From a virus (lineage: Duplodnaviria; Heunggongvirae; Uroviricota; Caudoviricetes): a stretch of DNA of 64,000 nt. Every line of letters starts with the position of its first letter. Position 1 is the first letter of the stretch. The notes under the pieces are model-generated. The model worked only from the letters and a program-made list of their open reading frames with translations, was not told the DNA's origin and made no database searches. Where the stretch lies: IMG/VR virus record IMGVR_UViG_2529292913_000008. The stretch is one strand, 5' to 3'. A program made the position numbers and the translations under genes. Shown here one piece after another: positions 44,295-50,276 of this stretch.

Positions 44295-44804
44295 ATGGGG
44301 CACAATAACACTAAGGGAAACCGTAAATTTATTAAGGGCCGCTATACTGCCAACGCGGCCAAAGGCGAACGACTGGTATCTTCTGAATTCCAGCTCACTT
44401 TTGCAGGCCATGAAGATATCAGCGTACTGGTTCGCACGTCGCAAATTCCTGAAATGACCCGCGAGGATGTGGAGGACTATGGTCCGAATGGTGTGAAGTT
44501 CAACCAGCACGGTCCAATCCGTAACTCCGGGGAAATCCAGGTCCAGTGCGTGGAGACTATCGAAGGCGATATTCTTCAGTTCATTAAAGATCGCATTGCG
44601 GCGAAGGACTATGTTGATATCACGATGGCTGCTACCCCTGAATCCAAATCTTCCGGGGTTAACGCTGTGACAAAAGCTGCTACAACAATTGAAATGTTGG
44701 ACTGCAAAATCTACAGTGATGCAATCGACTTTAGTACCGAAGATGTGACTGCTGCTGTGCGCCCGTCACTTCGTATCGTCTACAACTGGATTGATTGGGA
44801 TTAA
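44295..44804 (+). CDS. hypothetical phage structural protein
   Basis: 169 aa ORF followed by terminator. Confidence 0.55.
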   Translation: MGHNNTKGNRKFIKGRYTANAAKGERLVSSEFQLTFAGHEDISVLVRTSQIPEMTREDVEDYGPNGVKFNQHGPIRNSGEIQVQCVETIEGDILQFIKDRIAAKDYVDITMAATPESKSSGVNAVTKAATTIEMLDCKIYSDAIDFSTEDVTAAVRPSLRIVYNWIDWD

Positions 44805-44822: not shown

Positions 44823-44849
44823 TAAAGCTCCTTCGGGAGCTTTTTTATT
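44823..44849. terminator. rho-independent terminator (bidirectional)
   Basis: AGCTCC-TTCG-GGAGCT-T5 flanked by an A-run. Confidence 0.75.
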
Positions 44850-44908
44850 TGGAGAGGAAAGGGTGCATTGAGGATACCTGACACACGAAGAGTGGCGGGG
44901 ATCTCTCC

Positions 44909-46247
44909 CATAAGCGCTAACTTAAGGGTTGAACCATCTGAAGAATGCGACGCCTCGGTGCCTCGTTAAGACGATGCCTCGCGTTCTTCAATTGCGTTTT
45001 GTAGGCTGTCAGGGATACTGTCCCACGAATGGCCACCTGTAAGCTCCAGATGACCATTTTTGTTATTCTCCACAACGAGTTAGTTCTTCTTTTCGGATCC
45101 GGCACTTCTGGGGGGGAAATCCAGCGATGGCTGGATTATGTCGTCAATTAAAAATGCGGCGAGTAGATTAGCAAATATCCACGCTTTCGCGAGTTCAGGT
45201 TCCTTTGCACGCAAAGCATCCAGGTGCAGCAAACTTTTGAGCCGCTTAAAAGCCAGTTCAATTTGCCATCGCAGACGGTAACAATCAGCCACTTGCTCTG
45301 CTGAATATTCATCTTCCGGTAATGATGTTAGCAATAGCACATGGCCCGCTGCTTCCAGCGTTTCCGCCTGAACTACTCGTCCTTTTCGACGATTCTCGCT
45401 GAGCAGTCGGGTTTTACTGATTAATGCTTTTTCGGGAGGAAGTGATACGGCAATGAGACGTGCCGGAAAGGGAGCTCCGGCTTTTTTATTACCTGAATTG
45501 CCTATCATTACAGTGGTTTCACCGTTCTTACCGCAATCCAGCCCGCGCAGAAAACCCATCATGTCAAAGCGCATTCCTTCTGCAGTTAACCAGCGCAATC
45601 CTCGCCAGTGAACCCGGACGATATAATCAGCTTCTCCAAAAGCAAGTGAGCGGATACATTCGGGACGCGAACCGAATCCCCGGTCAGCAATGCGTATCTC
45701 GTCTGCCGTTTGCGCAAATCGGTCCAGCCGTTCAGCGTCTCTGCTGTCGGTTAGCTCAAAATCAGTGAACTGACAGGTATGAGGATCATATCCCATATGT
45801 AGTCGCCATTCAGCGCTGCCGCCCCCGGGCGCACTGATTGCTGTTCCATCGACAAGACGCAATCTCTTTCCGCTTGTACAACCCGTAACTGCGGCGCGTA
45901 CAGCAAGTGTTTGTGCGGCAAGTATGCCAAACCAGTCGGCGGCATTCCGCAGCCGCTTCAGGAGAGCCACGTCAGATAATGTTGCAACGTCATGGAGCTG
46001 AGCCCATGCAGTGACTTCACGTAATGACATCCCCCCGGGGCCGTAAGCCAGCCCCAGACGTAGCAGAGTTGCAGCATCACGAATTTCGCGGCGGCGGGTT
46101 AGAGCCCCGGCATTACGTGCCGAAGTATCCAGTTCTTCGGGCTTACCAATATGGGCCAGAATTGCTGACCAGTTATCGTGAGAGTAATTCATCGGCACGT
46201 TAAATCATATCAGGCGTAATACCACAACCCTTAAGTTAGCGCTTATG
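44909..46247 (-). mobile_element. IS186 (IS4 family), complete 1339 bp, 10 bp target duplication GGATCTCTCC
   Basis: terminal inverted repeats CATAAGCGCTAACTTAAGGGTTG at both ends; duplication at 44899-44908 and 46248-46257; reconstructed target GGGGATCTCTCCCC. Confidence 0.92.
45080..46198 (-). CDS. IS186 transposase
   Basis: 372 aa, matches IS186 transposase as recalled (MNYSHDNWSAILAHIGKPEELD...). Confidence 0.92.
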   Translation of the reverse strand: MPMNYSHDNWSAILAHIGKPEELDTSARNAGALTRRREIRDAATLLRLGLAYGPGGMSLREVTAWAQLHDVATLSDVALLKRLRNAADWFGILAAQTLAVRAAVTGCTSGKRLRLVDGTAISAPGGGSAEWRLHMGYDPHTCQFTDFELTDSRDAERLDRFAQTADEIRIADRGFGSRPECIRSLAFGEADYIVRVHWRGLRWLTAEGMRFDMMGFLRGLDCGKNGETTVMIGNSGNKKAGAPFPARLIAVSLPPEKALISKTRLLSENRRKGRVVQAETLEAAGHVLLLTSLPEDEYSAEQVADCYRLRWQIELAFKRLKSLLHLDALRAKEPELAKAWIFANLLAAFLIDDIIQPSLDFPPRSAGSEKKN

Positions 46248-46269
46248 GGATCTCTCCCCGCCAGGTCTC

Positions 46270-46425
46270 TTACCTTTCAGATTCGTAGGCTGTGAAGACA
46301 GTGACCTCCGTCTGGCCGGTTCGGATTCGTACCTCGCAGAGGTCTTTCCTCGTTACCAGTGCCGTCACAATGACGGTTAAACAGATGACGATCAGAGCGA
46401 TTAATATCGCTTTATGCTGCTTCAT
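46270..46425 (-). CDS. hok: Hok/Gef-family type I toxin
   Basis: 51 aa MKQHKAILIALIVICLTVIVTALVTRKDLCEVRIRTGQTEVTVFTAYESER; AGGAGA upstream. Confidence 0.85.
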   Translation of the reverse strand: MKQHKAILIALIVICLTVIVTALVTRKDLCEVRIRTGQTEVTVFTAYESER

Positions 46426-46606
46426 AGCCTGCTTCTCCTTGACCTTTTGGTCGGTAAGAGGCTAATCTACGTATGCTAAGCATAGATATGGCCTCAGATT
46501 AATGTTAAGCGTCTTGCAGGACGCGTAATGTTATCTGGGGCTTTCTTCTATCTGCTTTTCGGGTAATGCCTGAAGCAGATAGCCTCAAGCACCCGCAACG
46601 ATTGTA

Positions 46607-46852
46607 TCAATGTCTGGCTTTTTTTCTATAGAAATCACCTGGAAGGGTGAATATCCACATCAGAAGAAATGTTGCAGCAAACATGATCCCTAATGGCCAG
46701 ACCGCGCCAAAGAAAATCCATACTAAGATCTCCTCTGCTTGTTCTTTGCGGTCGATATCGACAAGCATTTTTCGGCTGATCATGTATACACAGAAGCCAA
46801 TACAAACATATCCTGCAAAAGCGATCGCTAACTGTAAAAAATCAGATTGCAT
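46607..46852 (-). CDS. small membrane protein (81 aa, two TM segments)
   Basis: start taken at MQSDFLQ with GAGG upstream; weak operator-like box 40 bp upstream. Confidence 0.45.
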   Translation of the reverse strand: MQSDFLQLAIAFAGYVCIGFCVYMISRKMLVDIDRKEQAEEILVWIFFGAVWPLGIMFAATFLLMWIFTLPGDFYRKKARH

Positions 46853-46902
46853 CTCCGACCTCAAACCGAAAACGCCAGGTGACTCCAGATTAGAGCAATC
46901 TA

Positions 46903-47172
46903 TCACCCTCTGAATCCTGCCGGTATACCCCATTGTTCGTTATCTTTATTTTTGGCTAAAACCGCATTAAGAGCTTCGTTTACCGTCATGCAATGCGGCA
47001 GATTATCGAAGTTTGATATCCCGCCAATATCAGGAGAACGCTTGTCCTTCAGGTAAGCATATTTCCGCGCTGCCGCCTCTACTTTCTGCTTGAACTCATG
47101 TTTTTGAGCGCGTTTTTTGGATAACCGCAGATTGTCAGCCTTTGCTTTTGCCTCAGCGATCCATGAAGTCAA
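46903..47172 (-). CDS. hypothetical basic protein (89 aa)
   Basis: ORF overlapping the stop of the upstream gene. Confidence 0.45.
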   Translation of the reverse strand: MTSWIAEAKAKADNLRLSKKRAQKHEFKQKVEAAARKYAYLKDKRSPDIGGISNFDNLPHCMTVNEALNAVLAKNKDNEQWGIPAGFRG

Positions 47173-50029: not shown

Positions 50030-50241
50030 ACCTGCGACCCGCTGCTAAACAGGTGGCAGGACGTGACGGGGTTAGCAGACTGGCACTTACGAAACCAGCA
50101 GGCCGAAGCCTCCCCATCACGCCCCACCATAATTCGGGCGTAACGTGGTTTACGGACACAAAAATACCGCAATATCGGAAATCTGCGGTTGTCCGCGTAA
50201 GTATTCAGGCTGCTAAACCCGGTCGCAGAATTTGCTACGAC
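50030..50241 (-). ncRNA. immI-like leader; candidate c4-like antisense regulatory RNA region
   Basis: minus-strand GGGUUUAGCAGC twice (plus 50209-50220 and 50039-50050) and a near-complementary GUCUGCUAACCCC (plus 50069-50081). Confidence 0.35.
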
Positions 50242-50247
50242 GGCGAA

Positions 50248-50276
50248 ACTATAAGCCTGAACGATTAAAAGGTCAA
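50248..50276 (-). promoter_or_regulatory. sigma70-type promoter for the immI-like operon (TTGACC-17-TATAGT)
   Basis: minus-strand -35 at plus 50271-50276 and -10 at 50248-50253. Confidence 0.55.

Follow-up and report, generated by a model that had tools for sequence, protein, structure and literature searches.

What becomes of a hok-family toxin gene when an insertion sequence lands just behind its stop codon? The question is raised by a 64 000-nucleotide stretch of Caudoviricetes DNA (IMG/VR record IMGVR_UViG_2529292913_000008; hereafter the window), for which the original prediction, made from the sequence alone, proposed that IS186 had inserted into a GC hairpin downstream of a hok gene. 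The host is a P1-like phage-plasmid (Punavirus): the locus is surrounded by P1 backbone, with the C4 antisense RNA, its a1b1 targets and tRNAs; bplB, repL, kilA, ant and icd are annotated in near-identical records, and an intact phd/doc is present at 1437-2038.

IS186 and its target site

The inserted element is IS186, an insertion sequence of the IS4 family, as had been proposed. It is 1339 bp long and identical to K-12 IS186A at 1339/1339 positions, with a single DDE transposase ORF between perfect 23-bp terminal inverted repeats, CATAAGCGCTAACTTAAGGGTTG, for which no further occurrence was found elsewhere in the 64-kb window. Of 5426 complete E. coli genomes, 2221 contain IS186. The element and its flanks are laid out as follows (positions in the window, strand in parentheses):

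44295-44804 (+): bplB, P1 tail-tube/baseplate gene, upstream neighbour and marker of the P1-like backbone
44824-44843 (no strand): terminator-like hairpin between bplB and the hok locus (terminator scan; IS-free transcript fold)
44861-44873 (-): fbi (fold-back inhibitory element; mRNA-strand sequence CCUCAAUGCACCC), now separated from hok by the IS
44894-44908 (no strand): left target half, GGCGG followed by duplication copy 1
44909-46247 (-): IS186, labelled 'IS421 family' by PGAP, transposase co-directional with hok
44909-44931 (+): IS186 inverted repeat, transposase C-terminus side
45080-46192 (-): IS186 transposase InsL, 370 aa, intact ORF (Pfam DDE_Tnp_1, E=1.6e-26)
46225-46247 (-): IS186 inverted repeat, transposase-start side, adjoining hok
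46248-46262 (no strand): right target half, duplication copy 2 followed by CCGCC

In P1-like records the stretch homologous to bplB is labelled BplB or tail tube protein. The element is flanked by a 10-bp target duplication, GGATCTCTCC (44899-44908 and 46248-46257). The IS has C...G as its ends, and a reading as a 12-nt repeat, GGGATCTCTCCC, is for this reason also possible. We rebuilt the empty site in silico by deleting the IS and one repeat copy, which gave GGCGGGGATCTCTCCCCGCC, and matched the result to plasmid records. The reconstruction is found in one unbroken piece, at ~99.5% identity, in 256 of them; the empty site is therefore real, and the GC stem-loop that removal of the IS was expected to restore does exist. 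The restored target, GGGG-ATCTCT-CCCC, fits the GGGG(N6/N7)CCCC palindrome, a preference that was named in the original prediction and that has been defined experimentally from 59 new IS186 insertions in either orientation, with a single GGGG-N6-CCCC site taking 16 independent hits (PMC5009759). The window in its present form has no GGGG-N6-CCCC motif (0 versus 0.41 expected by chance), so that the IS occupies what would be the sole such site in 64 kb. The insertion had been placed in the loop of the hairpin. The hairpin is indeed split, but the staggered cut duplicated not only the 6-nt loop but also two closing pairs on each side.

The interrupted hok locus

The IS ends exactly 22 nt from the hok stop codon (46248-46269), and the GC stem-loop lies 7 nt downstream of this codon. 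The assignment of the neighbour as a 51-codon Hok/Gef toxin is borne out by Pfam (HOK_GEF), and PGAP names the gene 'HokD' in relatives. Besides this ORF of ~50 aa, the locus has the structured 5′ leader with a Sok target and the antisense gene, here a probable one, that characterize hok/sok systems:

46270-46425 (-): hok-family toxin gene, 51 codons, intact (Pfam HOK_GEF, E=1.3e-21, 76.3 bits)
46412-46483 (-): mok leader ORF, 23 codons
46420-46594 (-): hok mRNA 5′ leader with tac, mok Shine-Dalgarno and start, and Sok target (Rfam RF01794)
46475-46552, approximate (+): probable Sok antisense RNA (alignment to annotated K-12 sokC)
46583-46594 (-): tac element GGGUGCUUGAGG, 5′ end of the hok mRNA (Rfam model start), pairs with fbi
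46601-46628 (-): promoter-like site for the hok mRNA, TAGAAA, 16 nt, TG-TACAAT

The RF01794 match spans the full length of the model with 114.9 bits (gathering score 59) and E=2e-25. The promoter-like site places the predicted hok transcription start near 46594, and a putative Sok promoter can be read as TTGACC at 46439-46444, 18 nt, TAATCT. The fbi element aligns with the corresponding element of K-12 hokC; the sampled P1-like loci show almost no variation in tac and fbi, the single fbi variant giving a G·U pair. In relatives without the IS, the full-length hok mRNA probably has its 3′ end in the region of the hairpin at 44824-44843.

The window carries a Hok Q4H variant, shared with its twin plasmid, and the same change (CAA>CAT) shortens mok to 23 codons, compared with 68 codons in 43 other loci. 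We considered this truncation as a second inactivating lesion and rejected it: the mok start lies 58 nt before the hok ATG and the shortened ORF stops 12 nt past this ATG, and in R1 hok, stops downstream of the hok start leave hok translation unaffected.

RNA folding and the terminal stem

In the minimum free energy (MFE) fold of the IS-free transcript, nt 1-12 (tac) pair with nt 373-385 (fbi) and the GC stem is formed at nt 333-352. This predicted pairing is in agreement with the proposal that the 3′ end of the mRNA is needed for fold-back. The split hairpin corresponds to the terminal stem of the processed, truncated hok mRNA; the right half of the target, read on the mRNA, is the 5′ arm and loop of this former stem-loop. 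The IS splits the stem after its 15th nucleotide and fbi is now ~1.35 kb off, beyond the IS, so that the window has neither the protective stem nor the tac/fbi end-pairing of a hok/sok mRNA. Interrupted transcripts of 347-500 nt fold tac locally, like the truncated form, and no tac-complementary partner was seen in the first 150 nt of the IS in folds of transcripts of up to 500 nt. The accessibility of the mok and hok Shine-Dalgarno sequences, computed from base-pair probabilities, does not separate full-length, truncated and interrupted RNAs and is not counted as evidence here. The displaced fbi and the split stem lend in silico support to the prediction that the insertion alters or abolishes toxin regulation.

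The sensitivity of this stem is documented in plasmid R1, where a single-base disruption abolishes both the truncated mRNA and toxicity, and where, of 22 substitutions in the 3′ UTR that cause loss of function, 19 break the terminal stem, with disappearance of the truncated mRNA (PMC9841398). Among the P1-like loci, all natural stem variants (25/25) are G·U-preserving transitions, which argues for selection on the RNA stem. The stem is intact or kept via G·U pairs in 32/32 empty sites examined; these often carry G-to-A changes by which the G-run is broken and the RNA stem retained.

The site in the plasmid population

The comparison with IS-free relatives that had been suggested as a check can draw on hundreds of uninterrupted sites, plasmid NZ_CP028125.1 being one IS-free example. 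Of the 405 records from complete E. coli genomes that have the site, 203 are occupied by the IS, 32 in the orientation of the window and 171 in the opposite one, and 202 are empty. The junction positions are identical in 15/15 sampled occupied loci with both IS ends readable, in both orientations. This recurrence in both orientations is directly observed, as are the anatomy of the locus, its empty site, the target motif and the positions of tac, fbi and the stem.

Occupancy follows the state of the G-run, which is intact in 16/16 reconstructable sampled occupied sites and in three IMG/VR loci with a truncated IS. Among the IMG/VR loci, those with a broken G-run are occupied in 0/21 cases versus 6/12 for those with an intact one (Fisher p=8e-4). 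The 202 empty sites include at least 49 intact, at least 16 GGCAGGG and at least 58 GGCGAGG alleles; these counts come from exact 40-mer searches and are lower bounds, with ~79/202 sites unclassified. The occupancy of ~50% could stem from clonal sampling or selection and not from a neutral hot spot.

Comparison with known systems

The closest counterpart is K-12 hokC (gef)/sokC with IS186A, a homologous locus with 75% identity over ~400 nt between IS-free reconstructions, in an alignment that takes in tac, the hairpin and fbi. There too, IS186 lies in the homologous hairpin (GGCGGGG-ATCACT-CCCCGCC, one loop base different from the window), with a 10-bp duplication, exactly 22 nt after the stop codon, and fbi is stranded on the far side of the IS. 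The two loci differ in that hokC is chromosomal (dnaJ-nhaA region) whereas the locus in the window is on a phage-plasmid, in that the hokC IS has the opposite orientation, with its transposase convergent with hokC, and in that mokC extends hokC N-terminally in frame, whereas mok of the window is out of frame. The IS-bearing K-12 loci have been described as having a disrupted fbi (PMC3562002) and, in the statement of Pedersen & Gerdes (1999) relayed by PMC7232551, as being inactivated by insertion elements. In a second K-12 locus, hokE/sokE, IS186B sits in a GC hairpin (GCGGGG-AGTAAT-CCCCGC) at a distance of 21 nt from the hokE stop, flanked by the 10-bp duplication GGAGTAATCC; transposase and toxin gene point the same way, as they do in the window, although hokE is a more distant chromosomal paralogue with another loop sequence.

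The same insertion with the same repeat has been reported, as IS186B, in the P1-like plasmid pSvP1 (Venturini et al., 2019; PMC6906374). The window is not pSvP1 itself: its IS10 (3205-4533) has the direct repeat AGCCCAGCA, whereas the repeat published for pSvP1 is TGCTCTGCA. That paper makes no connection between the pSvP1 insertion and the hok mRNA 3′ hairpin or fbi, and holds the IS responsible for the missing rlfA, rlfB and pmgF genes (PMC6906374). We rejected the idea that IS186 caused the swap of these genes for the hok segment, since IS-free plasmids share the arrangement; 202 IS-free records read across the same empty bplB-hok junction, which does not fit this attribution.

With regard to the IS-free reconstruction, plasmid R1 hok/sok (parB) resembles it in its tac/fbi end-pairing, mok leader ORF, Sok target region and GC terminal stem directly after the stop codon, but has no IS and has tac and fbi sequences unlike those of the window; function has been tested in R1 alone. 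Finally, the other IS186 hot spots, namely the lon promoter of E. coli B and fimA and menC in mutation-accumulation lines, share with the window the same motif, repeated independent hits at one site, and both orientations (PMC5009759, and the title of SaiSree 2001). These hot spots lie in promoter or coding sequence, whereas the motif of the window doubles as the stem of a type I toxin mRNA. The arrangement is thus an ordinary one, already known in kind from hokC/IS186A, hokE/IS186B and the pSvP1 insertion. The original prediction named neither the K-12 precedents nor the P1-like host, in which this insertion is very common.

Effect of the insertion on the toxin

The reading that we favour, with a probability of about 0.72, is that IS186 inserted into its preferred hairpin target and that no stable inert hok mRNA is made any longer, so that post-segregational killing is lost. 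A host copy of IS186 transposed into the GGGG-N6-CCCC palindrome that encodes the hok GC stem-loop. In IS-free relatives, a hok mRNA of ~400 nt would end in the stem-loop, a spacer, fbi and the terminator; tac/fbi pairing would hold this full-length mRNA closed, stable and untranslatable, and slow 3′ trimming back to the GC stem-loop would yield the active truncated mRNA, guarded by that stem-loop. The insertion separates the stem's 5′ arm and loop from the 3′ arm, fbi and terminator by 1349 bp. Transcripts from the intact hok promoter would then enter IS186, which in this orientation they read in the transposase sense, and would lack tac/fbi pairing, adopt the open 5′ fold of the truncated type and be deprived of the protective 3′ stem. 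The long-lived reservoir of inert hok mRNA would be absent, any transcript would soon be bound by Sok or degraded, and the toxin ORF would remain intact yet silent. We infer this transcript fate and the resulting loss of killing; the outcome is likely to be inactivation of the killer system rather than de-repression of the toxin. We propose that the plasmid tolerates the loss of killing because it also carries phd/doc.

The insertion might instead be neutral or mildly impairing, if IS186 happened to supply the transcripts with another 3′ end and a protective structure that keep hok/sok working. For K-12 gef, whose homologous site also contains IS186, continued transcription, regulation by the antisense RNA and termination inside the IS are reported (PMC3562002), and a new 3′ end of this kind could give some stability. 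Moreover, half of such plasmids bear the insertion, and promoter, tac, mok start, Sok region and hok ORF are intact in 16/16 sampled occupied loci. Signs of decay are scarce, amounting to two independent mok truncations (p ~0.1), which is less than would be expected of a long-dead locus and argues against inactivation. We nevertheless consider a working system unlikely: fbi is 1.35 kb distant, the terminal stem is split, no tac partner appears within the first 150 nt of the IS in the folds, single-base weakening of the stem suffices in R1 to remove truncated mRNA and toxicity (PMC9841398), and the IS-carrying K-12 loci are regarded as non-functional (PMC7232551). The opposite effect, in which an mRNA without fbi is always open and the toxin becomes more toxic or is repurposed, for instance for stress- or phage-triggered killing, would agree with the intact hok ORF and with the open, truncated-type 5′ fold predicted for interrupted transcripts. 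It is nonetheless very improbable, since the open form is the one that Sok binds and directs to RNase III (PMC9841398) and the Sok region is intact, the interrupted transcript is without a protective 3′ stem, and the presence of a toxic allele in as many as 203 of 405 natural plasmids would be unexpected.

A further alternative concerns only the history of the insertion. Plasmid NZ_CP122822.1 differs from the window by three substitutions in ~45 kb, yet its IS186 has the opposite orientation, and a second flank haplotype, 2-3 differences apart, also has both orientations. The orientation in the window could have arisen by in-place inversion of an opposite-oriented IS186, through recombination between its inverted ends, which the palindromic target extends to 39-nt arms with 90% complementarity; the identical junctions of the two orientation classes are consistent with this. 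For RecA-dependent recombination, however, 23 bp of perfect homology is marginal. IS10, IS1203 and IS91 events also separate the two plasmids, which indicates high IS traffic since their split, and IS186 can hit one GGGG-N6-CCCC site repeatedly in either orientation, as the 16 independent hits show (PMC5009759). In-place inversion and separate transposition would leave an identical sequence, and we hold the inversion to be the less probable course, albeit one with a real chance.

Meaning for hok loci and P1-like plasmids

The significance of the locus itself is small, as a further case of the textbook setting of IS186 downstream of hokC and hokE. A broader and rather doubtful reading is that IS186 comes into recurrent evolutionary conflict with the terminal stem of hok mRNAs, the G-to-A alleles being selected escape variants: as the RNA stem must be a G-rich/C-rich palindrome, it would be an unavoidable landing pad for IS186, and hok loci would be disarmed repeatedly. 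If true, this would account for two of the three K-12 copies and for about half of the P1-like plasmids, and the GGCAGGG and GGCGAGG alleles would destroy the DNA target while keeping the RNA structure by G·U pairing. The population pattern, with 50% occupancy, both orientations and empty sites enriched for stem-preserving alleles that break the G-run, offers an inexpensive natural experiment in which IS target specificity is set against RNA-structure constraint; it lends itself to follow-up and opens no new question. For the plasmids themselves, the annotation 'HokD toxin-antitoxin' probably denotes a disabled stabilization module in about half of the P1-like phage-plasmids, which would bear on predictions of plasmid persistence and curing.

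An IS186 copy next to the hok gene of a P1-like phage-plasmid

The window is a P1-like phage-plasmid, a replicon identified by its C4 RNA with a1b1 sites and its tRNA genes, which are standard P1 features. The elements considered here are the following.

1437-2038, minus strand: phd/doc, the P1 addiction module, intact
25967-26039 and 28248-28398, minus strand: three tRNA genes
44824-44843: terminator-like hairpin at the 3' end of the IS-free transcript
44909-46247: IS186, 1339 bp including inverted repeats, 100% identity to K-12 IS186A
46270-46425, minus strand: Hok/Gef toxin gene, 51 codons (Pfam HOK_GEF, E=1.3e-21)
46412-46483, minus strand: mok, shortened
about 46475-46552, plus strand: putative Sok gene, located by aligning the window with the annotated sokC of K-12
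46594-46420, minus strand: Rfam RF01794 match, full model length, 114.9 bits, its start coinciding with the predicted transcription start
46601-46628: promoter-like site for the hok mRNA, which puts the transcription start near 46594
50049-50254, minus strand: C4 antisense RNA with a1b1 target sites (P1 immI region)

At each end of IS186 stands a perfect 23-bp inverted repeat, CATAAGCGCTAACTTAAGGGTTG, found nowhere else in the window, and the element codes on the minus strand for an intact DDE transposase of 370 aa; 'IS421 family' is the PGAP label of the same element in related records. A 10-bp direct repeat, GGATCTCTCC, lies on either side of it (44899-44908 and 46248-46257); since IS186 ends in C...G, a 12-nt reading of the repeat is also possible. 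The original prediction held that IS186 had entered the loop of a GC hairpin 22 nt after a 51-codon hok-family gene, and this observation is correct in every detail: the gap from the hok stop codon to IS186 is exactly 22 nt, and deletion of the element with one repeat copy restores the hairpin, GGCGGGGATCTCTCCCCGCC. The target preference that it named agrees with mutation-accumulation lines, in which IS186 inserted almost exclusively at GGGG(N6/N7)CCCC (PMC5009759). GGGG-N6-CCCC is absent from the 64-kb window in its present form (0.41 occurrences expected), so that IS186 occupies what would be the sole such site; the association of element and motif is not due to chance.

Two K-12 loci are closely comparable. 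In hokC/IS186A the element has split the homologous hairpin, GGCGGGG-ATCACT-CCCCGCC, 22 nt past the stop codon, and is flanked by a duplication of 10 bp; its orientation is opposite to that of the window. In hokE/IS186B it lies in GCGGGG-AGTAAT-CCCCGC, 21 nt past the stop, and is co-directional as in the window. An IS186B insertion has also been reported in the P1-like plasmid pSvP1 (Venturini et al.), whose authors drew no connection to the hok mRNA and blamed the element for the missing rlfA, rlfB and pmgF, an explanation contradicted by IS-free plasmids. The window is not pSvP1, since the IS10 target duplications differ; its complete IS10 (3205-4533, with Rfam RNA-OUT at 4419-4488) has the 9-bp duplication AGCCCAGCA.

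Organization of the hok locus

From the sequence, the hok locus 5' of IS186 looks intact. The leader begins with GGGUGCUUGAGG, the tac element, and the start of the mok ORF lies 58 nt before the hok ATG. It should be noted that the Rfam 'sok antitoxin' model RF01794 hits the mRNA leader on the hok-sense strand, opposite to the K-12 sokC annotation, and its strand call should not be taken as the Sok gene itself.

At hok codon 4 (46414-46416), CAT replaces CAA, giving Hok Q4H, a change common only to the window and the near-identical plasmid NZ_CP122822.1. In both it also places a UAA stop in frame with mok, leaving that ORF with 23 codons instead of 68. We considered this truncation as a second lesion and rejected it, since the new stop falls after the hok ATG and stops downstream of the hok start leave hok translation unaffected in plasmid R1 (PMC9841398). 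The 68-codon mok is kept in 30/30 empty loci with a readable mok. Another occupied locus (L013) carries a 1-nt indel in mok; mok changes in occupied loci give a weak hint of relaxed constraint after insertion (p about 0.04-0.1).

According to the annotations of near-identical records, bplB lies directly upstream of the hok locus, which is followed by repL-like, kilA, ant and icd genes. Similarity to canonical P1 and P7 ends after bplB, and the hok segment is a common substitution among P1-like plasmids. An ORF of up to 108 aa (46607-46933, minus strand) between the hok locus and the repL-like gene has no Pfam match; a shorter version is annotated in relatives as a hypothetical or 'membrane domain' protein.

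Predicted folds with and without IS186

The original prediction assigned the mRNA 3' end a role in fold-back inhibition. In the MFE fold of the IS-free reconstruction (the locus minus IS186 and one duplication copy; transcript of about 396-423 nt), tac (nt 1-12) is base-paired to the fold-back inhibitory element fbi at nt 373-385 (CCUCAAUGCACCC, window 44861-44873), and nt 333-352 adopt the GC stem-loop. By chance, a 100-nt stretch should contain about 7e-5 complements of 12 nt with a single bulge. The whole arrangement can be aligned with K-12 hokC and agrees with the R1 model, where tac/fbi pairing closes the full-length mRNA and slow 3' processing yields a truncated, open, translatable and Sok-binding form (PMC9841398). 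The GC stem corresponds to the terminal stem of the truncated hok mRNA. In R1, 19 of 22 loss-of-function 3' UTR substitutions break a C-G pair of this stem and the truncated mRNA is gone, which the authors blame on 3'-5' exonucleases (PMC9841398).

In the window, IS186 parts the 5' arm and loop of the stem from the 3' arm, fbi and terminator, all now beyond the element. Folds of the actual transcript (347-500 nt) place the 5' end in a local tac stem like that of the truncated form. The terminator scan found no terminator-like site on the minus strand within the first kilobase of IS186, and read-through into the transposase gene is therefore likely.

Occupied and empty sites among related plasmids

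The comparison with IS-free relatives proposed with the original prediction bears out the reconstruction, which has uninterrupted matches, at about 99-99.5% identity, in 256 PLSDB plasmids and in several P1-like phage records. Site states were counted with 700-nt junction-specific queries against complete E. coli genomes.

State of the hok site in complete E. coli genomes
Empty: 202 records
IS186 with its transposase convergent with hok: 171 records
IS186 in the orientation of the window: 32 records

Half of these plasmids are thus occupied. Junction positions are identical in 15/15 sampled occupied loci with both IS ends readable, and occupied loci are dispersed among empty ones in flank-distance clustering. 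The window and NZ_CP122822.1 show 3 substitutions in about 45 kb, yet their IS186 orientations are opposite; NZ_CP122822.1 also lacks the IS10 and has IS1203 and IS91 copies missing from the window. In a second flank haplotype, too, loci only 2-3 differences apart carry IS186 in either orientation. Occupancy does not go back to a single inherited event. Recurrence and both orientations fit known IS186 behaviour, with repeat insertions at one site up to 16 times in either orientation and very rare excision (PMC5009759). In individual pairs, in-place inversion is a possible explanation of opposite orientations: because the target is itself palindromic, the inverted repeats are lengthened to 39-nt arms (44893-44931 and 46225-46263, 90% complementary), a possible substrate. 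In L011 (NZ_CP019054.1, p1540-3), the duplication copies differ (GGATCTCTCC left, GGATCACTCC right); the right copy carries the loop sequence of K-12 hokC and could reflect either a point mutation or the conversion of a short tract by a chromosomal hokC-IS186 junction.

Empty sites are polymorphic in the G-run (homologous to window 44894-44900). Exact 40-mer matches in complete genomes gave GGCGGGG in at least 49 records, GGCAGGG in at least 16 and GGCGAGG in at least 58, leaving about 79 of the 202 empty sites unclassified. The run is intact in 16/16 reconstructable occupied loci. In an independent IMG/VR scan, G-to-A alleles were found at 21/27 empty sites and an intact run at 6/6 occupied ones (Fisher p=8e-4, indicative only, given relatedness and recombination among the plasmids). 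Among sampled loci, GGCAGGG and GGCGAGG are frequent at empty sites (L015-L017, L020-L051) and present on no occupied site. The pattern would fit a need of IS186 for the G-run in its target; the G-to-A alleles may be either escape variants that were selected or markers of lineages. On the mRNA strand all stem variants seen (three positions, 25 loci) are transitions that replace a G-C pair by G·U and leave the 7-bp stem unbroken, which argues that the RNA stem is under purifying selection in uninterrupted loci.

Consequences for the toxin-antitoxin system

The insertion is a further case of a known phenomenon rather than a new one: insertion elements are described as having inactivated the K-12 hok loci (Pedersen & Gerdes 1999, cited in PMC7232551), and both fbi and normal processing are reportedly disrupted by the IS186 copy that follows gef/hokC (PMC3562002). 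Only the population pattern goes beyond the literature within reach, namely half of the sites occupied, both orientations, and stem-preserving, G-run-breaking alleles at empty sites.

The original interpretation, that toxin regulation is altered or abolished, is supported and sharpened. We consider that the insertion silences the locus while leaving the toxin gene intact, with a probability of roughly 0.7; the same conclusion was drawn for the K-12 loci. Function might instead be retained through a new 3' end inside IS186, a reading that we regard as rather unlikely; it is supported to some degree by the absence of decay in occupied loci and by K-12 gef, which is reported to be still transcribed and antisense-regulated (PMC3562002). 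De-repression of the toxin is highly improbable, being hard to square with 50% natural occupancy and with an intact Sok region.

If silencing is correct, the stable inert hok mRNA pool needed for post-segregational killing could no longer form, and the remaining transcripts would be open to Sok without 3' protection. The toxin gene, although intact, would be effectively silenced. Since phd/doc is intact, a second stabilization system remains even if hok/sok is disabled, and phd/doc would be left as the addiction system of the plasmid.
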